DNA of 64,000 bases from an uncultured delta proteobacterium (GTDB taxonomy: Bacteria > Desulfobacterota > Syntrophobacteria > Syntrophobacterales > Syntrophobacteraceae). The stretch spans positions 5,467 to 69,466 of the forward strand of contig CAWJQV010000016.1 in assembly GCA_963844985.1 (NCBI GenBank). Direction: 5' to 3'. A model generated the notes under the pieces. It was not told the DNA's origin. It was given only the letters and a program-made list of their open reading frames with translations, and did no database searches. The stretch's first letter is position 1. Each line of letters begins with the position of its first letter. Both the position numbers and the translations under genes were made by a program. Positions 38,944 to 63,256 of the stretch are shown in pieces.

Positions 38944-39017
38944 GCGAGTCGAGAGGGTGAATGGTAACCGACCAATTTCATCGATTCCGAGCGTTAACCA
39001 GCACAAAAGTCATTTAC

Positions 39018-39174: not shown

Positions 39175-39668
39175 ATGCATGAAGGCCACCGGCTGCAAAA
39201 TACTCCCGACTATTTCGATCCAATCAGCCACCATTTTTCAAAGAACGACACACCCTGTCTCGGCTCCCCTCAATGATACCGGAGGTATCCACTGACCAGA
39301 AGACCCCACCTGATGGGCATTCCACCAGCATCATTTTCAAAGAGTTGTCGGCTCATCGATCCAGGCAGTACGCTCGTTTGCCTCCGAGGTGACGGGTATC
39401 ATTTCCAAGTCCACGGGTGACACGAGCAACTTAAATGGCCGAGCCGAAGTCACGAAGGACTGGCAGTGAATGTTAGAATTTGTCCCTCCCGTCCAGGACT
39501 CAGGCAACAGGAACGCATTCCTTGGGCCACGCGCGTTATTGGAAAACCTTGGGCTCGGGCCTTGTGGACTGAATAAATGTGATATTATCCGCATACTTGC
39601 ACAACATCAAAAAAAGTGCTTAGGTTTATGAGAAGTTCGACAATTTCAGCATTTAGGAGAAAGAAGAA

Positions 39669-40028: not shown

Positions 40029-40405
40029 AGCTTTAATCGCCATATCAGATGAAAGTCCCACGGGCATGGATGCATATATGGTCAATATGATGGCCACGCC
40101 TTCTTAGCCCTCCGGACCCCGGCAACAAAAACACGTGGCCGGGGTGATATGCCTTCTGTCACCAGTTCGCTAAGGGGGTCTTGCAAATCAAGTTATCGGA
40201 GTCTACCAGGACGGGCCAACAGAAATCGCCTTGGCGATCCCGGTTAATCCTGTGGGATTTGGGAAAGCAATGGTTTCGCTTGCCCATATTGCGTTATCCT
40301 GAAATCTTTTGTTGGTGGCCGAATATGATCCGCATGTGGTGGGTTTGATGATGGGTGGGTTCCGAAAGCCATAGGAGAGCTCAATGAACTTCGAACACCA
40401 CAGAA

Positions 40406-40687
40406 TTAAGCGGCGGCTGGAACTGATATGGACTCGATGCCTACACCAAGGAACGTGATGACGCCACGTAGCCGCGCCGTCCGCTTGAATGAAAGTTGGG
40501 CATCATTCCGATTCACTAAAGAGAAAAGTTGCTTCTGCAGTTCCTGAACTATTTGAGAGCGGATAATGCCCATGTCCTTTTCGTGTTGGTCAAATTCGTC
40601 AACGGCCTCCGCCAAAAGTTCACAAATCGTCGCTGCCCAGAGCATCTCGCCTAATGTCCGGGGACAGGATAGGTCTGCTGCGATCAA
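40406..40687 (-). CDS. hypothetical protein
   Basis: 93-aa ORF 29 nt downstream of the MerB-like frame; no recognisable family. Confidence 0.3.
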   Translation of the reverse strand: MIAADLSCPRTLGEMLWAATICELLAEAVDEFDQHEKDMGIIRSQIVQELQKQLFSLVNRNDAQLSFKRTARLRGVITFLGVGIESISVPAAA

Positions 40688-40716
40688 GATTAATCTAAAT
40701 CAAAGCGCGAAGGCCA

Positions 40717-41424
40717 TTAGGGAGTCCAGAAGGGACCCGCCTTGCCCAGCTTCTTCAGCGATAAGATCAGCTCCGATGCATATTCGTTCAGTCGAGAGAG
40801 ATAGTCGGGCTGTAGGCGATTCCTGTGCAAAGGCCCACTAAACGCCGTTGCCCAGTTGGACAAGGACATGATGGACTCAGCCGAAACGGGATCATAAAGC
40901 GACCAATTCTTCACATGCTCTTCCGACCGGAAGAGATTCATGCGGCTTCAAGCCGAACCCCAGGTCACTTCTCCTGTTAAAGCCTTGGCGAACGGAATAT
41001 TCATATGTCCTACGGTCGTTGGTGGATTGACTTCGAGGATCTCCTCGTCACGCATGCGGACGCGGATGGGTTGCCCACAATCCAGGCAACTGGTGTCGAT
41101 ACGGATCTCCGTACCGGGGAAAAGCCAGCGCACGGCCAGCACTTCGATTCCTCACTGTCCGTACCACTTCTGTTCCCCCTTGATCGTTACACGATGATGT
41201 GTCGGTACGTTGGAAAAAGGCGCCCATGACTCAACGTAGTCTGTGTCTCTGACAAACCAGCAGGCTATGGAGGACTCGGCTGCCTTGCGCTGCAAGTGCC
41301 TGGCCTCGTCTGGTCGCACCCCGAGAATTCCCGCAAGCTCGGTATAGTGCGGTGCCCGCCCAGTCTTCACAAAATGCTCCACAACAGCAGTGTAAGCTCG
41401 TTGCACCAATGTGGTTTCTTCCAT
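40717..41424 (-). CDS. MerB-like (alkylmercury lyase family) protein with two in-frame TGA codons; candidate selenoprotein
   Basis: ORFs 41152-41424, 40948-41142 and 40717-40941 share one frame and are separated only by TGA at 41152-41154 and 40948-40950. The joined 235-aa product resembles MerB (GRAPHYTELAGILG; WYGQ-TGA-GIEVL; TSCLDCG; GSA-TGA-SRMNLFRS). Confidence 0.6.
40915..40941 (-). promoter_or_regulatory. SECIS-like hairpin after the second TGA
   Basis: AUG-AAU-CUCUUCC-GGUC-GGAAGAG-CAU. The 7-bp stem starts 12 nt after UGA, and the GGUC apical loop starts 19 nt after UGA. Confidence 0.55.
41119..41145 (-). promoter_or_regulatory. SECIS-like hairpin after the first TGA
   Basis: GAAG(U)GCUGGC-CGUGC-GCUGGC(U)UUUC gives 10 pairs including G-U, with one U-U mismatch. 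The loop contains GU 19-20 nt after UGA. Confidence 0.4.
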
Positions 41425-41536
41425 GTCATTTCCTCCCTTTCAGTTGTCATTTGGTACCGCGTATCGTTGACCACTGCCTTGGCGCTCAACTGGTGTAGCC
41501 TGCCAGATGGAGCGGCTTGTTGGCGGCCAACCGTGA

Positions 41537-41888
41537 TCATAAACCCTTCGGCAAAATCTTTGCAACAAACGACTGAGCGACGATCTTACCGTCCTGAACA
41601 ACGAATGTGTCTGTCGCCAGGTCGTAACGTGTTGTCGGCCGTCTCGGCGGTCCACAAAATGTAGGCATAGTCACCTTTGATGGACTGGTGCTTCAATTTG
41701 AACGAAGAACCAGGTTTTGCAAACTCTGCCAAAAGACCCTCGAATAACGGTCTGATAGCGTCGACTCCCTCTAATGGCCCGTCTGGCGTAAACAGGATCG
41801 CCGTGGGTGCGTAGTCGGAGAGGATGCCATTGAGGTCGCCCTCGCCAAAAGATTCCAAGTGGATGATCGACAACATCTTTCGTCGCAC
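41537..41888 (-). pseudogene. SnoaL/NTF2-like protein with a C-terminal frameshift
   Basis: GDLNGILSDYAPTAILFTPDGPLEGVDAIRPLFEGLL ... YAYILWTAETADNT then, after a 1-nt shift, YDLATDTFVVQDGKIVAQSF. Confidence 0.5.
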
Positions 41889-42003
41889 TCATGTCTTGCT
41901 CCTCCGTTGTTGGTTCTAATTCCTCGCTTCAGCGATCAGCCTTGTCTGAGTCGTCTCTTTGGTGGCCATCGGCCCTTAGCCGGCACAGACCAACTATTTT
42001 ATA

Positions 42004-42060
42004 GGCCGAACTCCCGTTGACGTGAGGGCTCGGTGGTCTTTGATCCACCCAACGTTCGCC
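42004..42060. other. attC-like imperfect palindrome (GGCCGAAC ... GTTCGCC)
   Basis: Terminal boxes GGCCGAAC / GTTCGCC with an inner GGTGG-n8-CCACC hairpin, between the genes 41537-41888 and 42124-42510. Confidence 0.35.
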
Positions 42061-42123
42061 TTCAACGGCACCGCCTTTGGCGCGTCCGCTGGACATTGTT
42101 GCTGGGCGACGGTCAGAGTCTAC

Positions 42124-42510
42124 TCATGACGGCGGGCTTTTTCCGAGCACTCGTTCAATCGCCGGCACAGCGTCCTCCGGACCGCGCACGAGGATGATCT
42201 TCGATCTCGGCGCGTTCGCGTGGATGATGTTGAGAACGCGATTGAACCAGACAGTGGTCTCTTCCGTCGCGGGGAAATTCACGGCGTCCTGTCCGTTGAT
42301 GTAGCCGCCGATGGCCACGCCATCGTACTCGGCTCGCTTCAGCTCCGCGACCAGCCGTGCGTCCCCAGCTTCATCGTTCGTCAGCACGAAGGTGGTCGCC
42401 TGGAACCCGAGCGAACGGAGTTTCTCTTGGACGGCGGCGGCGATCTCCGGATGTTTGCCGAACCCGAGGATGCGCCAACCCGTGGGGTGTGAAGAAGAGG
42501 CGATCTGCAT
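42124..42510 (-). CDS. hypothetical protein
   Basis: 128-aa ORF; no recognisable family. Confidence 0.4.
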   Translation of the reverse strand: MQIASSSHPTGWRILGFGKHPEIAAAVQEKLRSLGFQATTFVLTNDEAGDARLVAELKRAEYDGVAIGGYINGQDAVNFPATEETTVWFNRVLNIIHANAPRSKIILVRGPEDAVPAIERVLGKSPPS

Positions 42511-42762
42511 TTAGAGAATCATACCCCATCACGTCATTCCTCTACAAAACGTCAATCCCAAGTACTCATGATCAGCAACCACCCGACGCAGCGACTCATC
42601 GCGCGACGCGGTCTATCTCAACTCTCAACCTATTCGAACCATCCGTCCAGCGCTCCGCTTGAGAGGCACTGCTTCTAGCGGCGTCCCTCTCGAAGTGTTC
42701 GGCGTAATGATCGTTCATCACATCGGACCATATTTCCCTAATCCCGCTGGGCTTTCGTGTAG

Positions 42763-43557
42763 TTAGCGGCCACTCCCCATCTGAGCCAATATCTGCTCCA
42801 GAGCCGTCTGATCGGGAGTCACAAAAGGGGTCGAAGTTGGGACTTCCGCAAGCAACTCCAAGAAGTATCCGGTCTTTCCCCGCGCTGGTGGCAAGTGTGC
42901 GGAGAAGATCATTTTCGGGCCAATTTGACCAATTCTATCGAGCGCTTTAGTGAATCCGTCCGGGCTAACCATATGAACCCATGGGCTGTCAGCACTGGCC
43001 CAGCTGACCATGCCTCTAGCGAGATCTCCTTCTGTCACATCATCCGCATTCTGCACCGGCGAGGGGATAATGGCACCAAAGAAATCGGCAGAGAAAAAGG
43101 CTTCCGATTTGTTATCGTAGACACCGATAGTAGTCGGGTTATCGAACATGGGCGGTCTGACGGCGGTCAGCTCACGGTCACCCACTCTAATTCTGTCTCC
43201 CGGATTTAACCAGTGAACCCGATGCATAGGTACCGGCCAAGCTGTGCTCATCCTCAGCACTGCCAGGGAGTTCGCCACAAGGCGCGCGCCGGGTGATACT
43301 TCAAGAACCTTCTGAATGTTACCGGTATGGTCTGCATCATCGTGGGTAATCCATACCCACCTCAGGTCCTGAGGATCAATGATCGACGATAGAGCTATCA
43401 TAAACTCCTCAGTCTCAATTCCCATTCCCGTGTCAACGAGTACCGGCTCTTTAGCCTTGATGACGAAGGCATTGACCGGCAGGAATCCCATCCCGGGTAT
43501 CGGGAAATGAGCGGGAACGACCACGATATCTGGCATCGCTTCATAGGGTTTATCCAT
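42763..43557 (-). CDS. MBL-fold metallo-hydrolase
   Basis: 264-aa ORF with the WITHDDADHTGN (HxHxDH-type) motif. Confidence 0.8.
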   Translation of the reverse strand: MDKPYEAMPDIVVVPAHFPIPGMGFLPVNAFVIKAKEPVLVDTGMGIETEEFMIALSSIIDPQDLRWVWITHDDADHTGNIQKVLEVSPGARLVANSLAVLRMSTAWPVPMHRVHWLNPGDRIRVGDRELTAVRPPMFDNPTTIGVYDNKSEAFFSADFFGAIIPSPVQNADDVTEGDLARGMVSWASADSPWVHMVSPDGFTKALDRIGQIGPKMIFSAHLPPARGKTGYFLELLAEVPTSTPFVTPDQTALEQILAQMGSGR

Positions 43558-43604
43558 TGGAAACTCCTCCTTTCAAAAGACCGACTTGGAACCTTCACAA
43601 GTCA

Positions 43605-43668
43605 TCGCCAGAATGGATGTTTAAAAATCGAACAGTATGAATTGAAAGTTGCCATAACGTTAGGTGAC
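43605..43668 (+). repeat. junction repeat copy J (degenerate)
   Basis: TCGCCAGAATGG-n20-AGTATGAATTGAAAGTTGCCATAACGTTAGGTGAC aligns loosely with the repeat core. Confidence 0.4.
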
Positions 43669-43812
43669 ACAGGGCCTCGAAGCGGTTCCCTCAAGATCGG
43701 CTGCATTCGGCTACGTACGGACATTCAAGCTATTCAAGCTCCAAGCCTTTCGGATGGGCCTGCAGCCGGTAAGCAGGCCTACTCGAACTTGCCTCGAATG
43801 GCCCAGAGACCG

Positions 43813-44721: not shown

Positions 44722-44898
44722 GTAGTGCTCCTTTTGCTAGGGGAAAAGGATACAAGGAAGCATAATGGCACCAATAATACTTTTGTCCTCCTGAGGTGGT
44801 CAAAGGGAAAATTCCTTTTGGGAATAACCTCACCCAACATGGATTTTCTGGCCGAAATTGAGGCTGATAGACCAACGGTGAGCCCTGCCTCTTCTTTA

Positions 44899-45030
44899 CT
44901 TGCCATAAGGTCGAATCTGAGCTGGGGCACCTCTCATGAAAAGTATGATCTGGACGTCGTAAGGTTTCAGGGTATCGAGATTTCAGCCATCAGGAGAGCT
45001 GCGTGGAGTTTCCCCTTCTTCAGCCGAACG
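44899..45030 (+). repeat. junction repeat copy C
   Basis: CTTGCCATAAGGTCGAATCTGAGCTGGGGCACCTC ... GTATGATCTGGACGTCG ... ATCAGGAGAG-ctgc-GTG-GAGTTTCCCCTTCTTCAGCCGAAC. Confidence 0.85.
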
Positions 45031-45044
45031 GCGATGGTTTCAGC

Positions 45045-45559
45045 TCACAGTGCATCTTTTGCCGGCATGAGTGGTACGCGTGTCGAGACAGCGTGTAATG
45101 CAATGTTGTGGAGCATTTCATTCACTGTGGTGCAGCAATCCGGCAGAATGCATACCTTGTACTTCTCTGCGGACTTCGAGATAGCCGTGTGAGTCACGCA
45201 GTTTTGAGTCATCATGCCGCACACAAGCAATTCATCGACCCCTAATTCAGAGAGCGTCTCTTCAAGATTAGTCTTCACGAAGCTGTCAGCAAACTCTTTG
45301 ATATAATGGGAGCATCGGGAGCAGCTTCAAGAATTCGTGGATGGATTTTCGCGCCGTCCGAGCCCTGGTTGAAAAATGGCGCAATCCCCATTTCGGGGTT
45401 TGCGATATGCTGGATGTGAATAATGGGAATGCCTTTCACTCTCGCCGCCTTGATCGCCTGCTCGATGTTGCTGAGCGTAGCATCCGTATTCCAGAGCGGA
45501 AACTTACCGCCTGGGAAATAGTCATTCTGCAAGTCAATGAGTAGTAGTGCCTTCTTCAT
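45045..45559 (-). pseudogene. isochorismatase-family cysteine hydrolase; frame broken near 45278
   Basis: KALLLIDLQNDYFPGG ... then (shift) FADSFVKTNLEETLSELGVDELLVCGMMTQNCVTHTA. Confidence 0.75.
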
Positions 45560-45584
45560 GCTTTCTCCTTCGTCGATTCATTAA

Positions 45585-45663
45585 GCCGAACGCTCCAGTT
45601 CACCGGGCCGCGAAAGCAAGTGCAACTCCGCTTTCACCGCTCCCTTGGAACTTGTTGTTCGGC
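45585..45663. other. attC-like site: GCCGAAC-gctc-CAGTTC ... GGAACTTG-tt-GTTCGGC
   Basis: Perfect 7-bp outer boxes, an unpaired 4-nt spacer, then a second paired box. It is 79 nt long and starts 11 nt after the stop of the 45674-46090 pseudogene. Confidence 0.5.
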
Positions 45664-45673
45664 AAACATGTCA

Positions 45674-46090
45674 TTACCACCTGGTTAGTATGGCCCACAC
45701 CATGTTGGGCGAATGACCTTTGACGCGAACCATGCGCACCCACAGCAGCGTCATATGTTCCAGATGCAGCGCTTGCTCAAGACCTCCAACAATCGAGTGG
45801 CTCCCAGCCGAGCTGTTTGATCAAGTTACCAACTGTCTTCTTCGCGGATTCGTCCTGCCCGCACTACATCATCACTGGCTTGACGTTGGAATGAGGATAA
45901 GAGCTGTTCTCGAAATTCTCGAAACCGTTGATGGTGAAGGTTTTGCCCACCTTGGCCTCTGGAACAAGTTCCTGCACCATCTCCGACCCGGATTGACTGC
46001 AGTGAAAGCTGGGGGAACTCATCGAAGACCTTGTATCGCGTTTTAGAATAGACCTCGAAGCTCCAACTCGTGCTTTGAGGGTTCGGTTCC
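45674..46090 (-). pseudogene. F420-dependent NADP oxidoreductase-like fragment (5' truncated, at least 2 frameshifts)
   Basis: My own translation gives SGSEMVQELVPEAKVGKTFT ... CGQDESAKKTVGNLIKQLGWEPLD / VGGLEQALHLEHMTLLWV. Confidence 0.45.
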
Positions 46091-46119
46091 GCGCAACCTC
46101 ATCTCCAGTTAATCTTGGC

Positions 46120-47064
46120 CTACCTCGCTACGATGCGCAACCCTATGCTGATAGGATCAAAAACCAAGTGCATGCCTAGATGTTCAAAGTAGCGGCTTGA
46201 TCCGTAAATGATTTTCCACTGCGTGCGATCAAAGTCAAAATGCGCTTCGGCGGTGATCGCACCATCGGGCAGATTGCTGATAGTCGCGAGAAACTTCATG
46301 TCATGATGCATGCCACGGAGTTCAAGTGTGCCTTCCACTTTGAAATTGGGTGCACTCAAGGATTCACCAATTTTCCGGGCCGAATTAATCGTGAACCGGG
46401 CTGTTGGGAACTTCTCTGTGAAGAAAAAGTCATCCGATTTTAAGTGAGCAATGAGGACCGGCTGCCATTCGTTACCCTCCAAGTTCAGATTTTTTAGCGA
46501 GTGCATGTCGACCTCAAAAGTTCCGTTTAACTTGCCTTGCTGTATCTTGATATCGCCCCTCAATAGACGTAACGTGCCGTAGTGTATCGTGTTTGGGTTG
46601 CGCCCAGTCCACTCAATAATGCTCTGTTCAATGTCGACACTGTAGCTCCGGTCGTCCAATCTGAGGTGATCGTCCTCGTCTACAGCATCCGGATCATTAC
46701 CCGTCAGAGGATATCCGGCTTCTCTCCAGGCAGCCAGCCCTCCGGTGAGAGTAAACACCTTTGAATACCCGAGCCGCACAAGCTTTTCGGCTGCGGTGAC
46801 TGAATCATGGGAAGCCCTGCTTGAGCCGTACAGAACAATCTCCCGGTCACGATCGGGCACGATAGCCTCCACTTCCGAGGGGAAGACAACTTGAAAGACG
46901 CAGGCATTTTGGGCACCTGGCAGATGCCTCTTGTCGAATAGTTCCTTTAGCAAGGTGTCAATAATGATCAGATCTGTCTTCTGACTGATCTTGTCGTACA
47001 ACTCCTCCGCCGTGATCTTCGCAAAACTTTTCGTATTTTCCATCTTCTCCTCCTCCACGACCAT
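46120..47064 (-). CDS. rhodanese-homology domain fused to a YceI-like domain
   Basis: HLPGAQN ... LYGSSRASHDS ... LTGGLAAWREAGYPL (rhodanese fold without the active-site Cys), then TGRNPNTIHYGTL ... FPTARF ... GTLELRG (YceI-like). Confidence 0.7.
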   Translation of the reverse strand: MVVEEEKMENTKSFAKITAEELYDKISQKTDLIIIDTLLKELFDKRHLPGAQNACVFQVVFPSEVEAIVPDRDREIVLYGSSRASHDSVTAAEKLVRLGYSKVFTLTGGLAAWREAGYPLTGNDPDAVDEDDHLRLDDRSYSVDIEQSIIEWTGRNPNTIHYGTLRLLRGDIKIQQGKLNGTFEVDMHSLKNLNLEGNEWQPVLIAHLKSDDFFFTEKFPTARFTINSARKIGESLSAPNFKVEGTLELRGMHHDMKFLATISNLPDGAITAEAHFDFDRTQWKIIYGSSRYFEHLGMHLVFDPISIGLRIVAR

Positions 47065-47243
47065 CTGGCATACTGCTTTTCCGTATTATGTCCACCTGGG
47101 CTGGGACTGATGCTGTCAAAATGTCATTGAGCTTGTTCAGAAAGGTAAGCATAGTGAATGATCCCCGCCATTCCACTTTTCCTGCCTCTTCGATTTGCTT
47201 GCCAACGGGGTGAGATCTTCTCTTGCAAGCGACCATAACGGAA

Positions 47244-47287
47244 ATGATCTGGACGTGTTAAACTTTTGAGCCCTTGAGATTACAAGG
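47244..47287 (+). repeat. junction repeat copy D1 (partial; in tandem with D2)
   Basis: ATGATCTGGACGTGTTAAACTTTTGAGCCCTTGAGATTACAAGG. Confidence 0.7.
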
Positions 47288-47420
47288 TCCGCCAGAAGGT
47301 GGCGCCAGACCAGACACACTTCGCATAAAAGGTATGATCTGGAAACGGTGAAGATTTCGGCACTTCATTTTTCAGCTGAGGAGGAGAGGTATGCAAAGTT
47401 TCCCCTTTTCCAGCCGACCG
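47288..47420 (+). repeat. junction repeat copy D2
   Basis: CCGCCAGAAGGTGGCGCCAGACCAGACACACTTCGCATAAAAGGTATGATCTGGAAACGG ... GGAGGAGAGG-t-ATG-CAAAGTTTCCCCTTTTCCAGCCGACC. It is nearly identical to copy G over about 90 nt. Confidence 0.85.
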
Positions 47421-47484
47421 TTTGAGTTGAGGGGCGCGAAGCCGGCTTGCCGGCGTAGCGTCCCTCTCGAACGATTGGTTAGCT
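47413..47484. other. attC-like site (GCCGACC ... GTTAGCT) with a long imperfect inner hairpin
   Basis: Inner arms CGTTTGAG(TTG)AGGGGCGC / GCGTCCCT-CTCGAACG with a 3-nt bulge. It ends 10 nt from the stop of the gene 47494-49137. Confidence 0.4.
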
Positions 47485-47493
47485 GACGCTAGC

Positions 47494-49137
47494 TCATCGA
47501 ACCAGCTCAATCTCGCTTGGTCGCCACGTCTTGTCGAAGAACGGTTCCAGCGGGCTGTAGAGGCGCAGGAGGACAAAGTAACCCTTTTGGGGCACGGTCT
47601 GAATCCAGTTGCCGCGCTTGATCCCCTCAGGTTGCATTGGAGCGAAGTAGACCGTCGTGGAGCCGTCGGCGTTAGGCTCGGCGGCGGGCGATGGATAGCT
47701 CTGGCTGCCGGCGCGTGAGTAGCGCTGCGGGGTGTCGAGCATTGAGCGCGACTGATTGTCATAGAGCGTGAGGGACCAGAAGTTCGCCGCGGGAATGCCT
47801 TTCGGCAGGCTCACCTTGTAAGTCTTGGCGCCGTCCAAGTACTGCTTGTTCGCGTCCCGAGTGCCATAGAGATACTGTGAGCCGACGCCGGTCATACGCA
47901 TGGCCATGGCCGGCGACATGCCGACGTTGGAGTAGAAATAAAACGTCCGAACATCCAGCGTGCGGTAGCCAGTCTTCGGGAAGGGCTTGACACCTTCGGG
48001 AATACGTTGCCCATCCCGTACCGGCCCCTCGATGATAGGGATCGGCGTCTCGAACTCGTAGCCGCCGATGAACATCGGACTCACCCAGGCCGAGTCGGGG
48101 TAATACACCCAGCTTTGATCGCGCGGGTTCATGACGAGACTGCGAGCGGTGGCATTGGCCACCGCGACCGCTTCGGTGAGGATCTTCTTCATCCGGACAT
48201 CGGGGGCAAAGGGTTTGCCCTTGACGATCCCGATCGCGGCGAGCGGGCCCATCAGTTCGGGGTCGAGCGAGGTAGCCGGCTCCTGCTGGACGACCTCGTT
48301 GAGCATCTCGTAGAAGCTGAAGTCGTTGGGCGGAATGGTGTTGATTGCCCTACCGCTGCCCTCATGGAACACGGTTTCGGGCGACGGCGCGATCCGTCCG
48401 AGCCGAACCTTGCCGCTCAGGAACTCGGCGAGGGGCGTGCCGACCCCGCCCGCCTCGTATCGGTAGACCTTGGTGAACTTCCGGATCATCTCGGCCGCCG
48501 GCTTCGGGCTGTTGTCCTCAAGGAACATACGGCCGAACCACACGACGCGAGTGGTTTGAGCGCGAGCCGTGAAAAACCCGCCCTCCGGCAGCGGACCGTC
48601 GTAGCCGGGCGGCACGATCAGGTACTTTCCGCCAAGGCCGCGATCGGGGCCGGGCAGGCCGAGGTCGATGACCCAGCGGTACCAGTCGTCATCGATGGCG
48701 CCGAGAAGTCTCGGAGGCACCTCCAGCACCATGGGCCCTTTTGTGAGATCGAGGAAACCCACGACGTAGAGCGTGTCCGCGTTGGCCGTGAGGACCAGCG
48801 ACTTCGAATCCATGAAGTCGGACCAGACAACGACCTCGTTATCTTTCACTCCGATGTCAGCAAGGCCTTTGTGGAAGGCCTGCATGCTGACGCCCTGGTA
48901 AGTGTTTACGAACGCTTCGAAGGCGTGGGTGAAGTCGAGGTTGTCATATACCTTGGCGAGCGTGTCACTGCTCGGCATGCCGTCCTTGAATTCGAGCGTG
49001 CCGATCCGGCTCTCGACCCTGTCGGGTGTCGTGATCGAGGACGGAATTGCGCTGGCCGACTGGGCGGTGGCCAAGCCGGGGGCTGCCATCAGGGCGCAGG
49101 TTGCGAGGATGGCAAATGGCCTCGTGAGCTGATTCAT
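47494..49137 (-). CDS. secreted DUF1254/DUF1214-family protein
   Basis: Signal peptide, then DDWYRWVIDLGLPGPDRGLGGKYLIVPPGY and NFWSLTLYD signatures. The start is placed at MNQLT. Confidence 0.75.
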   Translation of the reverse strand: MNQLTRPFAILATCALMAAPGLATAQSASAIPSSITTPDRVESRIGTLEFKDGMPSSDTLAKVYDNLDFTHAFEAFVNTYQGVSMQAFHKGLADIGVKDNEVVVWSDFMDSKSLVLTANADTLYVVGFLDLTKGPMVLEVPPRLLGAIDDDWYRWVIDLGLPGPDRGLGGKYLIVPPGYDGPLPEGGFFTARAQTTRVVWFGRMFLEDNSPKPAAEMIRKFTKVYRYEAGGVGTPLAEFLSGKVRLGRIAPSPETVFHEGSGRAINTIPPNDFSFYEMLNEVVQQEPATSLDPELMGPLAAIGIVKGKPFAPDVRMKKILTEAVAVANATARSLVMNPRDQSWVYYPDSAWVSPMFIGGYEFETPIPIIEGPVRDGQRIPEGVKPFPKTGYRTLDVRTFYFYSNVGMSPAMAMRMTGVGSQYLYGTRDANKQYLDGAKTYKVSLPKGIPAANFWSLTLYDNQSRSMLDTPQRYSRAGSQSYPSPAAEPNADGSTTVYFAPMQPEGIKRGNWIQTVPQKGYFVLLRLYSPLEPFFDKTWRPSEIELVR

Positions 49138-49466
49138 CTTCGTGTCTCCTCTGTTTTCGGATTTCAAGTATCGAAGAGGCCTCAATTCCTGGGCACATCG
49201 CTCGGGGCGAGGCTTCGGCCGGCTAATCGCGGCGTTGACCCGTGGAACGAAGATTGCGGAGCCGCAGGGGTATGCCAGCGAGTGACATCGGTGTCGAGTG
49301 GCCTGGTTGGCGCTGCCAAGGCGGTGTCGGCCAAGGTAGGCACCGATATGGGAATTGAGCAGTCAGCCTGCACCATTCGTTCGGTATTATGGACCAATTG
49401 GCCCTGGGCTTCAATGTCTGAATGATAATGATAGCCGCCTAACCATGCGATGGGAACTTGCTACGT

Positions 49467-49566
49467 CTTGCCAAGACCTTAAGCTCGCAGTAGCGACCGG
49501 TTCTTTGAGGGTATGATCTGAACGTGGTGAATTTTAGGAACGGTCAGATTTTAAGGACCAGGAGAG
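49467..49566 (+). repeat. junction repeat copy E (3' module continues to about 49670)
   Basis: CTTGCCAAGACCTTAAGCTCGCAG ... GGTATGATCTGAACGTGGTGAATTTTAGGAACGGTCAGATTTTAAGGACCAGGAGAG. It is closest to copy B. Confidence 0.85.
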
Positions 49567-49888
49567 ATATCTGGAATCGATCGACTACGGGGCCAGCAAC
49601 GCGATACAAGGCAGCTGTCGCAACTTATTGCAGGCCGATTACAGAACTCTATCACCTCCGTGATGCCTCTGTCCATCGAGTTAGCCGACCATTTACCGAG
49701 AGAGTGAATCTTCATGAGCAGTGCTCACGGAAGGGTTGGCAAATTAGAGTTTGTTTCGGTTCCTGACTTGCAAAGAGTCACGAAGCATGCCGAGATAGGA
49801 ACCGGATGAGCTGAGAGGCTCACGTCCAGATCTGCGCGGGCGTCGGGGTGCGATTCCCCAGCGCACTCTAGTATGTTGATGAAGACCA

Positions 49889-51856
49889 TTACAGTTCCAC
49901 TTGACTGCCCAACTCAACCACGCGGCCGGGAGGAATGCCGAAGAAGTTGGAAACATTCCAGGCGTTGCGTGACAAAAAGGCGAACAGTCCCTTGCGCCAC
50001 CGGGTCATCTTGCTGGAACCGGTAGTCAGCAGAGATTCCCGGCCCAGAAAGAAGGAGGTGGCAAAGATGTCCACATCCAGGCCGTGAACATTTAGCAGGT
50101 CGATGATTTCCTGGATATTGGGGGTTTCCATAAATCCGTATGAAGCTACGATACGGCAAAAACCGAGGCCTTTGTCGGTTATTTCGACTCTTTTCTCTCG
50201 CGGGACATAGGGAGTATCAGTGGAAACAAGGGAGAGGATAAACACCCTTTCCGGTAAGGCTTCGATATGTTTCAGAAGATGGAGCAGCACAATGGGAGTC
50301 CCCGTTGGCGACACCGAAAGAAAGAAAGCGGTGCCGGGAGTGCGCGCCAGCTTGAAGCCGGTAATGTCGGATATGAGAAGATCGAGGGGGACCTGGGCTA
50401 GTTCAAAACTCTTCCTGAGAACAGCCCGGCCGTCTCGCCAGGTGACCATGACGACGAAGAGGAAGACGGCGACGCTCACTGCAAACCAACCTCCGTCAAA
50501 GAACTTGAGCAGGTTGGCGCCGAAATAAGAAAGATCAAAGAAGAGAAAGATGCTGGAAGGTAACAAAGACTTCCAGAGCGGCCAACCCCAGTTATACCGG
50601 GTAACAAAAAAGTAGATGAGAGTGGTGATGGCCATGGTGCCGGTGACCGCAATGCCGTAGGCGGCGGCCAGACGGCTGGATTCTTTAAAGGCGAGCGCCA
50701 AACCCAGGCAGCCGATCATCATCATGGTGTTGACCCATGGCAGGTAAATCTGCCCCTTGGTCTCCCCCGAGGTATGTACGATTCGTAACCGGGGGCAATA
50801 GCCTATCTGGATGGCTTGCTGCGTCAGGGAATAGACCCCGGTGATCATCGCCTGCGAGGCAATGACCGTGGCGGTTGTGGCCAGAGCCACCATGGGATAG
50901 AGGAGAGGCCGCGGAACCAGCTCATAAAAGGGGTGGACCGAAGCCTGGGGGTTCTCCAGGAGCAGGGCGGTTTGGCCGAAATAATTGAGCAGGAGGGCGG
51001 GAAAGACCACCGTGATCCAGGAGAGGCGGATAGGCCCAAGCCCAAAATGGCCCAGGTCCGCATAGAGTGCCTCCCCTCCGGTGAGGCAGAGCACTACAGC
51101 GCCCAGAACCACAACCCCGTGCAGCCGGTTGGTGGCAAAGAAGGAGACGGCGTAACGCGGGTCCAGGGCCGCCAGGATTTCGGGCCGGCGTAAGATCTGG
51201 GCCAGTCCCAGGACGGCTATGGAGGAAAACCAAAACAACATGATGGGGCCGAAGACCCGTCCAATACGCTCGGTGCCCTGGCTCTGAAACATAAACAGGC
51301 CCGCCAGGACGATGCAGGACATGGGCAGGACGAAGGGTTCAGCGCCGATGGTGGCCACATTCAGGCCTTCCATTGCAGATAGCACGGAGATGACCGGGGT
51401 AATAATGCCGTCGCCATAAAGCAGGGCCGCACCAAAGATGGCCAGGAGCACCAGCAGGTTTACCCGGCGAGGAGAGACGCTCTGCCGCCCCTTGCTCAAA
51501 AACAGCGCGACCAGAGCGTAAATGCCGCCCTCCCCATGGTTGTCGGCCCGTAAGATGAACATGACGTATTTTACGGTGACCACCATCGTCAGCGACCAAA
51601 AGATCAGGGACATGACCCCCAGAATGTTATCCGGGGTGATGGTCATGGCGTGCGGACCGTGGAAGCATTCCTTGACGGTGTAAAGAGGGCTGGTGCCAAT
51701 ATCGCCATACACCACTCCCAGAGCCCCCAGAGCAAGGATCAGCTGTTTCTTCGGATCTTGATGCTCGTTCGGGCGGCCACGGCTTGACGAAAAGGCTGTT
51801 TCTGCTGACGCGGATTGAGGCGGCTGCTGCGCACCTGGGGTGGAAGAGGAACTCAT
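49889..51856 (-). CDS. kup: KUP/HAK/KT-family potassium transporter
   Basis: GALGVVYGDIGTSPLYT, ADNHGEGGI and a C-terminal cytoplasmic domain. The start is placed at MSSSSTPG. Confidence 0.9.
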   Translation of the reverse strand: MSSSSTPGAQQPPQSASAETAFSSSRGRPNEHQDPKKQLILALGALGVVYGDIGTSPLYTVKECFHGPHAMTITPDNILGVMSLIFWSLTMVVTVKYVMFILRADNHGEGGIYALVALFLSKGRQSVSPRRVNLLVLLAIFGAALLYGDGIITPVISVLSAMEGLNVATIGAEPFVLPMSCIVLAGLFMFQSQGTERIGRVFGPIMLFWFSSIAVLGLAQILRRPEILAALDPRYAVSFFATNRLHGVVVLGAVVLCLTGGEALYADLGHFGLGPIRLSWITVVFPALLLNYFGQTALLLENPQASVHPFYELVPRPLLYPMVALATTATVIASQAMITGVYSLTQQAIQIGYCPRLRIVHTSGETKGQIYLPWVNTMMMIGCLGLALAFKESSRLAAAYGIAVTGTMAITTLIYFFVTRYNWGWPLWKSLLPSSIFLFFDLSYFGANLLKFFDGGWFAVSVAVFLFVVMVTWRDGRAVLRKSFELAQVPLDLLISDITGFKLARTPGTAFFLSVSPTGTPIVLLHLLKHIEALPERVFILSLVSTDTPYVPREKRVEITDKGLGFCRIVASYGFMETPNIQEIIDLLNVHGLDVDIFATSFFLGRESLLTTGSSKMTRWRKGLFAFLSRNAWNVSNFFGIPPGRVVELGSQVEL

Positions 51857-52047
51857 GCACACCCTCCAAAACATCTTTAAAAGGTTGATTCGCCACAGAG
51901 GCAAGAAACGGCAGACCGTGACCTGTCCCATCAGGGTTTTTTCCATAGCGGGGTGATTCCAACGGCCTGGAGCTTTTCCAATGTGAGTTCGCATTCGAAA
52001 CTCTTCCGACGTTCTAATCCGCCGTATTTCGGGTCTTGCCTGTTTTG

Positions 52048-52967
52048 CTATCGCGTTGCTTTAAATTCTCTTTCGCGAACTACTTCCTGCATGCTGATAA
52101 GAGCCTCATCACACTGAGCGGCTATCTTCCGCTTCTTTCCTAAAGAAAGCTCGAAAGACTTGAGGTTGGTATTCTCACGAGAGAGTCTGATTATCTCGGC
52201 AGTAATTGCCGCAAAGTCATCGAAGGCCGCTCTTGCATCCTGGAGCGATGCACGGTCTTCCTCGGGAACTAAATCCGCCAGTTTTTTGAGGGAGGTGTCA
52301 ACGATCTCTCCATCCTGCCGCATCTCCGCTTCGATTTCATCCATCCGTGCATCACTTGCCGCTACGATGTGGGGAGCATGTAAAATCTGTATCCCCAGCC
52401 CCGCCGCAAGGGCATCGGATGCCGGTATCAGGACATGGCTGCAGTTGTCGCTCGATAAACTGGAATAGATCAGGTTCTTGAGAGCTCGTTCAAAACGCTT
52501 TATGGCTTCATTTCCTTTGCCAAAAGACAGGGCAGCAGCCTTGAGGTTGGTGTTCTGAACGGCGAACTCAGGATCTCATGGTCGATCTTTCGAAGCTCTG
52601 CCCAGCATGAGTCAAACTGATGGAACAGTTTCATCTCTTTATCCGTGTGATCCCGGTTGAGCAAAGATTCGAGCTCACGGTGATCTCGCTCTACACGGTC
52701 TGCAGCCTGGCGCGACCGGTCGGCAAAATCCCTGGAGGTCTCATCCGTATCCGCCATGACTGCGCTCTTTTCAGTTTCCTCCGACTTGAGGAGGTTTACT
52801 CTCATCGCAGACAAGAGCTCCATCTTCTTAGTCATATTGCCTATGACGTCCTGCAGATCGGGGCTGCCGCCTCTAAACCTGATGACGATCAAAGTCAACA
52901 CAAGGATCAGGGCGGCCAGCACTAACAGGGAAATCGAAATTCTTCCATGTGCATGTTGCCTGCTCAT
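52048..52967 (-). pseudogene. membrane-anchored four-helix-bundle (4HB_MCP-like) sensor-domain protein; frame broken near 52570
   Basis: An N-terminal TM segment plus helices. QNTNLKAAALSFGKG (shifted frame) and RENTNLKSFELSLGKK are duplicated motifs. No signalling domain follows. Confidence 0.5.
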
Positions 52968-53031
52968 ATTCTTTATGCTCCTTTCGGCTCAATTTACTGC
53001 TATCCGTAACCGTGCGGGCTCAGGCTTTCCT

Positions 53032-53223
53032 TTAGAGGACTTTCATTCGTTTCGTTGCCTGTGATACCTGATGACGAAGTTGAAATTGGGGAAGGCTCGC
53101 GGCAGCCTCATCAGGTTGAACACCATAACACCTATCGCCATTCGGTCCAGCCATGAGGACAATGGGCCAACCGAAATAGATGATCTCTTCCGAAGGATTG
53201 GCACAATTGGTACGCTGCTGCAT
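53032..53223 (-). CDS. small hypothetical protein
   Basis: 63-aa ORF with AAGGGG 8 nt upstream of the ATG; no family recognised. Confidence 0.25.
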   Translation of the reverse strand: MQQRTNCANPSEEIIYFGWPIVLMAGPNGDRCYGVQPDEAAASLPQFQLRHQVSQATKRMKVL

Positions 53224-53353
53224 ATTCGCACCCCTTTTTGAGTGAAGTCATTCTACACCTCCAATTTCCACCGCACATAATTTAAGCAGGATCTTTTCAG
53301 TGTTGTACTTCGCAGCGCTATTTTCTCGTTCAAATCTGCAGAATTCAGAACCT

Positions 53354-53480
53354 CTTGCCACGGTGGTGAAACGGCAGCCTGCCTCGATTTACTATGCACA
53401 TGATTTGGAAGTGGTAACTTTCCAAGACGTCGAGATTTCAGTCATCAGGAGAGAAACGTGGAGTCTATCCTCCAGCCAAC
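53354..53480 (+). repeat. junction repeat copy F
   Basis: CTTGCCACGGTGG ... CACATGATTTGGAAGTGGTAACTTTCCAAGACGTCGAGATTTCAGTCATCAGGAGAG-aaac-GTG ... CCAGCCAAC. Confidence 0.8.
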
Positions 53481-53536
53481 ATAGCCATCACCGGGAGCCA
53501 TCTTTATCGGCGATCCGGTGCATGGCATGGTTAGGC
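53474..53536. other. attC-like site AGCCAAC-ATAGCCAT-CACCGG ... CCGGTG-CATGGCATG-GTTAGGC
   Basis: 63 nt, nearly fully paired arms with two extra bases on one arm. GTTAGGC abuts the stop codon of the gene 53539-53955. Confidence 0.55.
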
Positions 53537-53538
53537 AA

Positions 53539-53955
53539 CTACTTTGCCTTACACTTGTATACGTAGTTCGAACTCGTGCCTTTAAGCGGATAGTCCTGAT
53601 CGTTAAGATCGAGCCGGAAGGTAATCTCTACGTCGCGACACCCGTCATGTTTGATACCATCCGAGGTGATCGTGACGTCGCGTTCACAGCTCAGAAGAAT
53701 CCCCCCATCTGAGCGAGATAGGTTTTGGATTTTTACAACGACGTTTTCCCCACGAGCCTCATATATAAACTCGGACTGCCCTGATCCACTTACCCCGATA
53801 TGATCAACCTTCCATCCGGCGGGTCTAAGCAGCACGGCTTTGATTTTATCAGGCCCACCAGCACCGGTATTGTCTTGGGCATAAGCCGTTGGTATTGTTT
53901 GGAGCGAAGAAAAACAAAGAACACAGGAGATGGCAAGAAAAGAATACAGTTTCAT
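53539..53955 (-). CDS. secreted hypothetical protein
   Basis: 138-aa ORF with the signal peptide MKLYSFLAISCVLCFSSLQTIPTAYA. Confidence 0.45.
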   Translation of the reverse strand: MKLYSFLAISCVLCFSSLQTIPTAYAQDNTGAGGPDKIKAVLLRPAGWKVDHIGVSGSGQSEFIYEARGENVVVKIQNLSRSDGGILLSCERDVTITSDGIKHDGCRDVEITFRLDLNDQDYPLKGTSSNYVYKCKAK

Positions 53956-53987
53956 TTGAGCCTCCCTCTGGGTCGAAATAATTCGTT

Positions 53988-54077
53988 GCCTAACGCAAAA
54001 TCAGCGGTGCCAGGCCATGGACTTGAAAACATGACCACAAGGCGTGTCCGGGCATCCGCTGCATTTTTTTGTTCGCA
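53988..54077. other. attC-like site GCCTAAC-GCAAAATCAGCGG ... CCGCTGCATTTTTTT-GTTCGCA
   Basis: 90 nt; outer AAC/GTT boxes plus paired inner boxes with unequal arms. It fills the spacer between the genes 54090-54419 and 53539-53955. Confidence 0.5.
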
Positions 54078-54089
54078 CCTTCTATCGCG

Positions 54090-54419
54090 CTACTTCTTCG
54101 AAGCTGTGAAACCCGAATCGTCTCCCATATGGAAGTAGATCCTTCCAGTCATGGTTCGACCCGTGATCTGCGCCCACGCCCTCCCACAGACGGAGTCTCC
54201 TTCATCTTCGCCCTCAAATGAGAATTCGAGTCGCTCAACCCCACCCAACGGCTCGACCCGGCAGTCGACCTCGGCCTCGACTGCGCCGAATTGAAGTGAA
54301 CCCGTGCCATCGTCCCCGATCGTTAAATGGCCTGGCACCACCTTATCGATGTAGTCTTTGTCCCACTGTTCCATTTCCGTAATTCGCCACCTGCCTACGT
54401 ATGCCTTATTGGTCTTCAT
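54090..54419 (-). CDS. hypothetical protein
   Basis: MKTNKAYVGRWRITEMEQWDKDYID ... GRAWAQITGRTMTGRIYFHMGDDSGFTA. The start is placed at an internal Met of the 142-aa ORF. Confidence 0.45.
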   Translation of the reverse strand: MKTNKAYVGRWRITEMEQWDKDYIDKVVPGHLTIGDDGTGSLQFGAVEAEVDCRVEPLGGVERLEFSFEGEDEGDSVCGRAWAQITGRTMTGRIYFHMGDDSGFTASKK

Positions 54420-54530
54420 TCTTGTGTTACCCTTTTTTGGTGAGAACACAGGATATTGCGCCGTCAGGATATGGCTATAGAGCATTGGCGTCAAGCTGGA
54501 GCTATCTTCTAAATGCATTTTTCAACGGAA

Positions 54531-54657
54531 CTTGCCAGAAGGTGGCGCCAGACCAGACACACTTCGCATAAAAGTATGATCTGGAAACGGTGAAGATTTC
54601 GGCACTTCGTTTTTAAGCAAGAAGGAGCTGTGTGGAGTTTCCCCTTTCCATCCGAAC
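54531..54657 (+). repeat. junction repeat copy G
   Basis: CTTGCCAGAAGGTGGCGCCAGACCAGACACACTTCGCATAAAAGTATGATCTGGAAACGG ... AAGGAG-ctgt-GTG-TGGAGTTTCCCCTTTCCATCCGAAC. Confidence 0.85.
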
Positions 54658-54713
54658 GTGTGAGAACAGCGGCCGCGGCTGTGCCGCGTGTCCGCTGGAT
54701 TGATTTGTTGGGC
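54651..54713. other. attC-like site TCCGAAC ... GTTGGGC
   Basis: 63 nt; inner arms CAGCGGCCGCGGC / GCCGCG(TGT)CCGCTG with a 3-nt bulge. It overlaps the 3' end of repeat copy G. Confidence 0.45.
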
Positions 54714-63179: not shown

Positions 63180-63256
63180 GGCTACGCTATCCCACCATCG
63201 TATGTAACAAATCTTTGGGGTAGCCGCCGGCACCGGCTCAGAGAAAGGTCACACAG

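Follow-up and report, generated by a model that had tools for sequence, protein, structure and literature searches.

The interval 40390-54713 of the window (the whole stretch of DNA analysed, 64,000 nucleotides) is very probably a chromosomal integron cassette array that has no integrase nearby and is now decaying, in other words a CALIN, which is a known kind of array; the host is probably a Syntrophobacteraceae-like bacterium living in peat or wetland soil. This assignment follows from the absence of intI from the window, combined with an array of attC sites and a single cassette that has been mobile. Several of the cassettes begin, at the recombination point, with a repeat of 115-190 nt that is previously undescribed.

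The attC sites were searched with a covariance model, R1, trained on 13 genuine class-1 integron attC sites and independent of the window. R1 served as a surrogate for the IntegronFinder model, with which the initial annotation had proposed to check its reading of the region as an integron-like array, and the result bore this reading out. Across the 64-kb window, its seven best matches all lay on the minus strand, that of the genes, between 40.4 and 54.7 kb. Their E-values ran from 3.5e-4 to 0.57; the calibration of R1 is rough, and all the values but one are individually weak (0.01-0.6). Six were at or below 0.1, with about 0.1 such match expected by chance, and the seventh had E 0.57. All matches elsewhere in the window had E>1, in line with the calibration. 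A second model, R2, was built from seven window sites and two sites of related genomes (L012 and the aadA-like L015). In the reciprocal test, on seven class-1 plasmid loci totalling 99 kb, R2 recovered all of the 16 attC sites with their strand assigned correctly and gave no false match at E<0.1, a performance that the very canonical, aadA-like L015 site may inflate.

The first attC of the array (54651..54713; R1 27.2 bits, E 3.5e-4; R2 54.7 bits; single-stranded DNA fold z -3.2) has its own cassette gene cut off by an IS1595 insertion. Next come the sites of the 142-aa gene cassette (53988..54076; R1 13.8 bits, E 0.57; R2 36 bits; z -2.9) and of the 138-aa gene cassette (53474..53536; R1 17.0 bits, E 0.098; R2 36.7 bits; z -4.5), then those at 47413..47483 (R1 17.4 bits, E 0.08; R2 46.3 bits; z -4.2), 45585..45663 (R1 17.4 bits, E 0.078; R2 38.5 bits; z -3.0) and 42047..42107 (R1 17.2 bits, E 0.085; R2 56.8 bits). 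The distal end of the array is marked by a 112-nt site (40390..40501; R1 20.9 bits, E 0.011; R2 43.3 bits) downstream of MerB-like fragments (40717-41424). R2 reported a probable attC at 42645..42703 (19.7 bits, E 0.006) that was unreported by R1, and a doubtful one after the SnoaL-like gene at 41466..41524 (15.4 bits, E 0.089), whose aligned 3′ box is not GTT-like; both are also on the minus strand. These two, the latter weakly, and the site at 40390-40501 were additions of the models to the sites listed initially. The distance from stop codon to attC is 2 nt at 53474-53536, 10 nt at 47413-47483, 13 nt at 53988-54076 and 16 nt at 42047-42107. It reaches 59 nt between the MBL-fold gene and the site at 42645-42703, and the site at 45585..45663 lies downstream of the rhodanese-YceI gene and an unassigned stretch of 450 nt.

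Five palindromes of the initial annotation (45585-45663, 47413-47484, 53474-53536, 53988-54077 and 54651-54713) folded as single-stranded DNA better than their shuffles (z -2.9 to -4.5) and coincided with R1 matches to within 0-4 nt. The palindrome proposed at 42004-42060 showed no fold (z -0.2) and is not an attC, both models placing the site at 42047-42107 instead, and the supposed weaker sites at 58788-58839 and 63417-63474 (z -1.7 and -1.9) were reported by neither model at E<=10. The RYYYAAC...GTTRRRY boxes held in part: no site shows the strict consensus on both boxes, and AAC...GTT alone is constant. In the common attC structure 88% of cells were paired, against 19-48% when the partners were slid. 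Compensatory changes were seen in six pairs, five of them in the L box, and the extra bases of the folds lie on the 3′ arm of the plus strand. The plus strand of each attC is the bottom strand and can fold into a hairpin of R box, unpaired spacer and L box, of the type that integron integrases recombine at G|TT.

Gene and attC alternate in the array, each minus-strand gene being followed by its site, unit by unit. The predicted gene content was largely upheld by Pfam, with SnoaL_2, MBL/ODP (42763-43557), extradiol dioxygenase, isochorismatase, rhodanese-YceI (46120-47064), DUF1254/DUF1214 (47494-49185) and Kup, as well as 4HB_MCP fragments and a MerB fragment; the exception is the presumed F420/NADP oxidoreductase fragment, ORF 45864..46022, which has no Pfam match. 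The isochorismatase consists of two frameshifted halves, ORF 45045..45278 being the C-terminal one. Two minus-strand ORFs of 128 aa (42124..42510) and 138 aa (53539-53955) precede the sites at 42047-42107 and 53474-53536, respectively. Length and gene number exceed what one cassette would hold in two stretches, 53473-47484 (6 kb, including Kup) and 45584-42704, so some boundaries there have been lost or were never present. Under its default 4-kb rule IntegronFinder would split the array into two CALINs at the 6-kb gap from 53474 to 47483. A terminator scan gave a single nearby match, 53474-53459, just beside attC 53474-53536.

It is highly improbable that the palindromes are generic intergenic hairpins, REP-like or bidirectional terminators, that mimic attC sites. 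Their location at the 3′ ends of genes and the modest E-values of the individual matches would suit such hairpins. However, the 31-kb core part of the window has none of them, R1 giving no match at E<1 there, and almost none occur in 440 kb of related DNA that lies outside arrays; on 164 kb from related genomes, surrogate data for this check, R1 gave two matches only, both resembling real attC sites. Furthermore, the hairpins carry no T-tracts, and the terminator scan stayed at shuffle level and matched none of them. Their sequences are diverse (59-112 nt) with conserved R and L boxes, and the units they bound are of cassette size and shift between contexts.

The best-defined mobile unit is the complete minus-strand cassette 53474..53993, which runs from TTAGGC through the 138-aa ORF to its attC. 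It is 87% identical to L112 9962-10471 and L113 595-1104, with both flanks unrelated. In the comparison with L112 the homology extends from G|TTAGGC to the R′ box and the flanks diverge at the G|TT crossover points; with R1, the L112 orthologue of this attC scored 20.5 bits. The 138-aa protein has 114 homologues in many differing contexts; those in L115 are followed by an attC, and one in a JGI contig adjoins a Phage_int_SAM_4/Phage_integrase (tyrosine recombinase) gene. The cassette-level variation among relatives that an integron array should display was thus found for this gene and its attC, whose neighbours differ in L112/L113, L115 and elsewhere. A block of two cassettes is also common to the array and L059 (95% identity, different context); it includes the attC 42047..42107, at 3975-4035 in L059, and its start is not at an attC boundary.

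The claim that intI is missing from the window stood: tblastn with an IntI1 query 100% identical to the real IntI1 gave a best E of 0.36, and no integrase was found across 613 kb of related loci. The two IS elements announced initially are present. An IS1595-family transposase gene (54892..55860, plus strand; Pfam DDE_Tnp_IS1595, E 2.4e-31, and Zn_ribbon_IS1595) is found immediately upstream of the first attC and flanks the array on its Pc-proximal side, and an IS4-like one (56126..57979, minus strand) has a weak DDE_Tnp_1 match (E 0.003, below the curated cut-off). A group II intron domain V/VI-like remnant at 49797..49866 (plus strand; Rfam RF00029, 33.1 bits for a gathering score of 40, E 0.005) lies on the strand opposite to the cassette genes, at a distance of about 20 nt from the stop codon of Kup. 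In its domain V it is similar to an intron of L116 that encodes an RT. The frameshifted genes, at least two missing attC sites, the two promoter-proximal IS elements and the intron stump behind Kup would all be marks of decay. An IntI from another location, whether encoded in the same genome, by a former neighbour or by a passing integron, presumably brought in the cassettes and shuffled them.

The array might instead have been the distal part of a complete sedentary chromosomal integron before becoming detached from it, with intI and attI outside the window and no growth at integrase-free sites, the separation being due to the IS1595 and IS4-like insertions or to an IS-mediated rearrangement. 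We consider this rather unlikely, even though the position of the IS elements, exactly promoter-proximal to the first attC, would suit it, and the same IS block recurs in L111 with an outer flank that differs from window position 58060 onward, which suggests IS-mediated rearrangement. A homologous cassette also lies beside an integrase gene in another contig, and this route to CALINs is named by Cury et al. (PMC4889954). However, no intI fragment occurs among the housekeeping-type genes of the 58-64 kb region past the IS elements, an intI pseudogene is lacking near 95% of CALINs (PMC4889954), and the small arrays or single attC sites of relatives (L112, L115 and L045) are integrase-free as well.

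A CALIN formed by an integrase acting from a distance, the reading that we prefer, agrees with the CALINs described by Cury et al. 2016 (PMC4889954) in its two or more co-oriented attC sites, promoterless accessory genes of unrelated function, non-resistance cassettes, IS beside the array and lack of a nearby intI or intI pseudogene. It differs in size, with 7-9 sites where 83% of CALINs have fewer than six (PMC4889954), and in the lineage-specific repeat at the start of several cassettes. Like the sedentary chromosomal integrons of Vibrio and Xanthomonas, it is chromosomal and one-directional, carries small genes of mostly unknown or metabolic function and varies between relatives at the cassette level. 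Unlike them, it has no integrase/attI platform, and its attC sites are heterogeneous (59-112 nt) rather than a homogeneous species-specific family such as the VCRs.

The repeat, noted initially as a 125-nt junction repeat, is genuine: a strict pattern found 9 copies in the window against 0 expected, and a profile search (nhmmer) found 10, all on the plus strand. Its supposed fusion with the palindrome into a composite attC was not borne out, the repeat being an independent dispersed element most of whose outside copies have no adjoining attC. We recovered 92 non-redundant copies in Syntrophobacteraceae-like (peat-soil) genomes. The element is non-coding, multi-copy, lineage-restricted and set in unrelated flanks; it has no match in Rfam and shows neither terminal inverted repeats nor a conserved secondary structure, the long form having a weak hairpin only. 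In at least nine independent loci its start coincides exactly with the crossover point of an attC and its orientation is constant, next to diverse attC sites (r47, r53 and r54 of the window; L012, L015, L045, L069 and two in L054). About 85% of the copies are far from any attC, in either orientation relative to the neighbouring genes.

In the array, r54 (54520..54630; E 1.4e-15) has a class-a 3′ extension, TGTGGAGTTTCCCCTTTCCATCCGAAC, that reaches the crossover point of attC 54651-54713, and r53 (53342..53455; E 5e-25) abuts attC 53474-53536; the loci of r53 and L112 diverge after the G|TT of that attC, which is the element start. A tandem pair, partial r47a and r47b (47191..47391; E 8e-8 and 5.6e-16; families D3, D6 and D7), abuts attC 47413-47483. 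In r49 (49456..49569; E 1.6e-22) a class b extension, common to L022, L044, L056, L090, L093 and L106, takes the place of an attC. The extension of r44 (44889..45028; E 6e-25) ends in GCCGAAC, an empty end also seen in L009 and L080; no attC hairpin follows it (45022-45110, fold z -0.1), and the isochorismatase stop is 16 nt away. Outside the array are the long forms r35 (35780..35893; E 4.5e-20) and r39 (39062..39177; E 2.9e-27), the latter with an orthologous locus, L078, 93-96% identical. Beyond the IS elements, the long form r58 (58649..58758; E 4.9e-27) is followed by the palindrome 58788-58839, attC-like in neither R1 nor R2, and r63 (63247..63355; E 4.6e-26) by a weak palindrome (z -1.9, no model match) that overlaps the stop of ORF 63469..63864.

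One subclass of the element terminates in the core-site-like GTTCGGC, and we tentatively favour the view that this end is a double-stranded partner site for IntI, attI- or attG-like (Loot et al., bioRxiv 10.1101/2022.09.11.507474). The G-T-T where cassettes join, the unoccupied copies and the unrelated attC sites of the joined cassettes form the pattern that, by analogy, would be expected of such a site, and also of CALINs or SALINs (single attC sites) that arise at a distance from an integron. Cassettes would then accumulate immediately next to the element, and the growth of small arrays far from any integrase would be possible. Unlike the element, the described attG sites consist of a short GWT motif with no conserved context of 100 nt around it, and attI is single-copy and beside intI, whereas the element is multi-copy. 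Nearly as likely, the element is a conserved non-coding 5′ segment of some cassettes that travels with gene and attC, as a leader or promoter borne by the cassette or a relic of cassette formation. The presence of several elements in one array, with a gene and next an attC after each of them, fits this equally: r54 precedes the 142-aa gene, r49 the DUF1254 gene and r47 the rhodanese-YceI gene, and the same interleaving is found in L054. The orthologous rhodanese-YceI gene of L066 likewise retains an element remnant upstream, which speaks against a mere landing site. ORF-less cassettes of the oral metagenome (PMC6557892) resemble the element in being non-coding, bounded by cassette junctions and provided with promoter-like and Shine-Dalgarno-like boxes, but the element differs in occurring in many copies, most of them outside arrays, and in lacking its own attC. 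Against a travelling 5′ segment stand the many copies remote from attC, the promoter-like -10 and AGGAG boxes, whose strand is opposite to that of the cassette genes, and the absence of the element from the cassette 53474-53993 and from its relatives.

Much less probably, the element is non-autonomous and mobile, MITE-like or derived from an attC-targeting IS or intron, its own transposition machinery rather than IntI placing it beside hairpins such as attC. Its dispersal and lineage restriction would agree with this, and IS1111-attC is a known attC-targeting element. So are the group IIC-attC introns (Léon and Roy; PMC3001079), which occupy the attC bottom strand, opposite to cassette transcription, with outward promoters. 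The absence of terminal inverted repeats and conserved structure argues against mobility of this kind, and no presence/absence polymorphism with target-site duplication was found. In contrast to these introns, the element lacks ribozyme domains and an RT gene, does not resemble a bona fide intron of the same environment, and is located external to the attC, next to its R′ side. The stump 49797-49866, which adjoins one copy of the element, has exactly the strand and position of a group IIC-attC intron.

The initial annotation had read the minus-strand gene run between 40 and 54.7 kb as an integron cassette array lacking an integrase, with imperfect palindromes as attC sites. A regular expression for the strict consensus RYYYAAC...GTTRRRY matched none of the claimed sites, and covariance models were therefore used instead. 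The first model, R1, served as a surrogate for that of IntegronFinder. Thirteen class-1 integron loci were fetched, and 13 attC sites were cut from behind annotated cassette genes (aadA1, aadA2, aadA5, aadA16, aadB, VIM-2, aac(6')-Ib, aac(6')-29a, arr-3, dfrA5, dfrA27, a DUF1010 cassette, and a yjjG site reconstituted across an intron); the sites were aligned, and the R and L helices alone were annotated. R1 was run with filters off on both strands of the window (128 kb). Its seven best matches all fell on the minus strand within 40.4-54.7 kb, at 54651-54713 (E 3.5e-4), 40390-40501 (E 0.011), 45585-45663 (E 0.078), 47413-47483 (E 0.08), 42047-42107 (E 0.085), 53474-53536 (E 0.098) and 53992-54073 (E 0.57). 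The remaining matches each had E>1, as correct calibration predicts. Six matches reached E<=0.1 where 0.1 is expected, and all of them share a strand and fall in 22% of the window's length; they cannot be due to chance. Five of the palindromes first proposed agreed with R1 matches to within 0-4 nt. The one placed at 42004-42060 had been mislocated, R1 putting the true site at 42047-42107, and the weaker sites at 58788 and 63417 received no support.

Folding as single-stranded DNA gave structures far better than those of shuffled sequences for five of the six main palindromes (z -2.9 to -4.5). In each of these five the extra bases left unpaired are found in the plus strand's 3′ arm, and the bottom strands of control attC sites (VIM-2, aadA and others) fold with bulges on the same 3′ arm. 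In an alignment of nine sites, the AAC/GTT pairs are retained in seven to nine, the R helix is 83% paired, and the L helix is 92% paired with compensatory changes at 5 of 9 pairs, a count that leans toward structure because the alignment was fitted to the model; 88% of the cells pair, versus 19-48% when the partners are slid. The window sites depart from the strict 7-mer R-box consensus, and the unpaired spacer between R and L in 54651-54713 measures 9 nt versus the canonical 5 nt. Four sites start 2, 10, 13 and 16 nt after a minus-strand stop codon and two start about 60 nt after one; in three cases no intact ORF directly precedes the site, because an IS has cut in, the gene is in fragments or the stretch is unassigned. 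Paired R boxes, an L helix with spacer and extrahelical bases, a model score and a location at the 3′ end of a gene were all found.

In 164 kb of related genomes, R1 found two sites only, a textbook attC of 61 bits in locus L015 and one in locus L012 that adjoins a copy of the junction repeat described below. A second model, R2, was built from these two and the seven window sites. It added a candidate at 42645-42703 (minus strand, E 0.006, seen by R2 only), 59 nt past a stop codon, and a doubtful candidate at 41466-41524 (minus strand, E 0.09). On seven class-1 plasmid loci R2 recovered 16 of 16 attC sites on the right strand with no false match at E<0.1 in 99 kb; part of this success is not independent, because R2 includes the aadA-like L015 site. 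The array shows that simple surrogate models are able to validate calls of attC clusters without an integron integrase (CALINs).

The credible genes in 40.4-54.7 kb are on the minus strand throughout, and Pfam confirmed most of the genes listed by the initial annotation: SnoaL_2, MBL/ODP, extradiol dioxygenase, isochorismatase (in two frameshifted halves, 45275-45559 and 45045-45278), rhodanese-YceI, DUF1254/DUF1214, Kup, two 4HB_MCP fragments and a MerB fragment. To the right of the array, Pfam identified an IS1595-family transposase (54892-55860) and a second DDE transposase (56126-57979).

No integrase was detected in the window by tblastn with IntI1; annotated IntI1 proteins from thousands of plasmids match this query at 100% identity. 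The best match (E 0.36) was a 24-aa stretch inside the junction repeat. Phage_integrase was absent from the scanned window ORFs, and tblastn with IntI1 was likewise negative in 613 kb of related loci. No intI, the gene of a tyrosine recombinase with the IntI-specific insertion, was thus found within about 4 kb of an attC cluster, as it would be in a complete integron. The side upstream of the first cassette, where such an integron would have attI and the Pc promoter, is taken up by IS1595. We know of no general model for attI sites. By definition a CALIN has two or more attC sites on the same strand, spaced by under 4 kb, and no integron integrase (Cury et al., PMC4889954). Since no IntI1-like integrase was found, the array is a CALIN by these definitions, with three sites in the cluster 54713-53474 and four to six in the cluster 47483-40390. 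The 4-kb rule makes these two adjacent CALINs, because the stretch 53473-47484, which includes Kup, is 6 kb without a recognisable site. Once the coordinates are corrected, the original observation and its CALIN interpretation hold. The array belongs to a known class and is ordinary for it: a further CALIN, from a little-studied, uncultured lineage of sulfate reducers and syntrophs of peat soils.

A sequence resembling domains V/VI of group II introns lies at 49797-49866 on the plus strand, about 20 nt past the Kup stop and opposite to the cassette strand. An RT-encoding intron in L116 (3855-3945), which comes from a sample of the same kind, has a closely similar domain V. With 33.1 bits versus a gathering score of 40, no accompanying RT ORF and at most about 300 nt that could be intronic, the match falls short of a group IIC-attC intron. 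The strand and position are those of group IIC-attC introns, which insert exactly there and separate a gene from its attC (PMC3001079). A truncated intron may for this reason mark a destroyed attC past Kup, but the score is below threshold. The arrangement is seen in a class-1 control, L036, whose yjjG cassette has its attC occupied, on the bottom strand, by a group IIC-attC intron (ltrA, 3500-5660); the insertion point lies between ...AATTGT and TAGGC. A similar domain V/VI-like stretch was also seen 3′ of a junction repeat copy at 977-1044 of another locus, L044.

Cassette mobility was followed through the 138-aa protein encoded at 53539-53955, which has 114 homologues. The fetched loci L112 and L113 are 87% identical to window 53994-53488, with unrelated flanks on the outside. 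The window and L112 copies both begin G|TTAGGCAA... immediately past the preceding attC and part again just beyond G|TT in the attC that each carries itself, limits that would be indirect evidence for integrase recombination there. Both L112 attC sites also score with R1. In L115 a homologue of the gene, followed 3 nt later by a single attC, stands between ordinary chromosomal genes, and on another contig a homologue sits within a run of small genes including VapBC and other antitoxin cassettes. On a contig of JGI 3300075153, known from its gene order, a Phage_int_SAM_4 + Phage_integrase gene near lexA is followed 800 nt downstream by a homologue. Among the 11 contexts examined for this protein family, this is the only one with an integrase. 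The order there, on one strand, is lexA, DUF6036, the 396-aa Phage_int_SAM_4 + Phage_integrase gene and the homologue; this could be an integron whose integrase is oriented like its cassettes. A two-cassette block (42500-41438, 95% identity) is common to the window and L059 in different contexts, and its left boundary is not at an attC.

The junction repeat, an element of 115-190 nt, is a real family. A strict pattern found nine copies in the window (0 expected) and a profile search ten, all on the plus strand. The strict pattern retrieved 23 true copies from GTDB genomes, all of them in MAGs of Syntrophobacteraceae or Desulfomonilaceae, mostly from peat, and about 60 from JGI metagenomes; 92 non-redundant copies have a complete 3′ end. 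The invariant blocks are CTTGCCA, about 38 nt, GTATGATCTGRAC, then TTTTC, GAGATTTCAA and CAGGAGAG, and the neighbouring genes run in either orientation. No copy matched Rfam 15 at gathering or at E<=5. There is no consensus secondary structure (RNAalifold -1.6 kcal/mol), and a scan of column pairs returned weak helices without compensatory change. No ORF is conserved after the AGGAG box, and the minus-frame likeness of 'HTLK..ATA.LRS' to box I of IntI1 (E 0.36) breaks down at stop codons in several copies and lacks a Pfam match. A sigma-70 or sigma-54 promoter was rejected, as a promoter scan calls one copy only and no -12/-24 pattern was visible by eye. The downstream flanks are unrelated except at orthologous loci, as would not be expected within a larger mobile unit. 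No similarity to the L116 or L036 introns was found by nhmmer, and a MITE or REP-type origin is disfavoured by ends that, read by eye, are not inverted copies of each other and by the lack of a consensus structure. A long form (window 35730-35795, 39017-39080 and 58599-58660) carries about 65 nt extra, CTTAACAGAAYCAGCA..GATAGCCGGAAGATAT, ending in CTGTTAAG on the cassette strand; taken as an ORF-less cassette with a 42-nt mini-attC, it offers a weak hairpin that is not conserved (z -4.9 to +1.2).

Twelve non-redundant copies continue for a further 30 nt or so, ...GTGGAGTTTCCCCTTTTCCAGCCGAAC, which on the cassette strand reads GTTCGGCTGGAAAAGGG..., i.e. a core-site-like GTT and then the element. 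Model-supported attC sites end exactly at the element at the window copies r47, r53 and r54 (named by kb), and in L012, L015, L045, L054 (twice) and L069. The attC bodies joined to it are all different, and at r53 the point of divergence from L112 is G|TT itself. The GCCGAAC end occurs without a following hairpin in window copy r44, L009 and L080. The initial annotation had described palindromes fused to the repeat as a composite not known to have been described for attC. The junction is real; it is not an unusual attC, for the differing attC bodies, their ends exactly at the element and the divergence of r53 at G|TT mean that two separate things are joined at the integron crossover point. At least nine independent crossover-point junctions, spread over several genomes, involve the element, even though the majority of its copies lie at other genomic positions. 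This crossover-point repeat is the one feature that is out of the ordinary.

One reading of these junctions makes the element a double-stranded partner site of IntI, attI- or attG-like, against which cassettes would accumulate; genomic attG sites are known to be used by IntI (Loot et al., bioRxiv 10.1101/2022.09.11.507474). The empty GTTCGGC ends, the diversity of the attC sites joined to the element and the many copies outside arrays favour such a site. In its full form, a new, multi-copy and scattered landing pad whose GTTCGGC end would be recombined by IntI with attC, we regard the proposal as rather unlikely. A cassette array without an integrase could then start from each copy. This would explain the origin and growth of CALINs and of single attC sites, supply a definite mechanism behind the unexplained abundance of arrays that lack an integrase, and provide a natural, sequence-defined case of the attC x genome route that laboratory work has recently demonstrated. 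In a related version, element and attC together would be a scaffold for assembling new cassettes, bearing on the long-open matter of cassette genesis.

The interleaved order of element, gene and attC in the window and in L054, and an element remnant retained upstream of the rhodanese-YceI gene in L066, favour another reading, a 5′ segment common to some cassettes; such a module would offer a rare clue, at the sequence level, to the way in which cassettes are made. A third reading, a small mobile element that does its own targeting, finds little support. One comparison fits none of these three readings. The metagenome contigs L045 (4300-4677) and L069 (160-535) are 100% identical across flank, element and whole attC. 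Their point of divergence is exactly the gene-side R'' box, at which two unrelated genes, one GNAT-like and one RibD_C-like, have their TAA stop codon in common. Divergence on the gene side is contrary to the prediction of canonical R' crossover; an assembly chimera, or a pair of cassettes whose attC sites are identical, may account for it. The element is the part worth following, and merits an experimental test. In L015, a methyltransferase gene and a very canonical attC lie between two element copies in inverted orientation (136-316 and 1729-1845), and a COG3860 RNA motif is found at 32-85.

Positions 1-31 kb of the window have a G+C content of 53-60% and long housekeeping-type ORFs, and include tRNA-Arg (6476-6551), a TPP enzyme gene (29432-31153) and a tandem heptanucleotide repeat CTGCTTA/CTGCTCA of about 15 units (23108-23214). 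From 31 kb on, the G+C content drops to 46-58% and the genes turn accessory; a gene for a WYL/WCX-domain regulator (31444-32217, plus strand) stands exactly at this transition, and a DEAD-box helicase gene lies at 61767-63179, whose product, the one window protein queried for exact matches, had none on record. Frameshifts interrupt many genes of the accessory region: CCP_MauG, a secreted repeat protein, MerB, SnoaL, isochorismatase and the 4HB sensor (33746-34811, 37708-38881, 40717-41424, 41537-41888, 45045-45559 and 52048-52967). In L111, the same locus of a strain 98.5% identical, the 4HB gene is intact (306 aa) versus two fragments in the window, and in L059 the SnoaL gene is intact; some of the window frameshifts are therefore recent (pseudogenisation) or assembly indel errors. 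L111, the nearest relative, stops within the array region. It contains the array and both IS, and past the outer IS end (window 58060, L111 2087) its sequence is unrelated, which suggests an IS-mediated rearrangement or a contig chimera at this point. A fibronectin type III fragment ORF (58085-58399) begins right at the IS boundary and has a 58-nt direct repeat (83% identity, 58055-58383) inside it; it is probably what remains of a bigger repeat protein that the IS interrupted. The window ORFs 33746-34105 and 38177-38881 end in a hydrophobic stretch followed by RRRK/RRRRK, C-termini that can be read, by eye, as a PEP-CTERM-like sorting signal.
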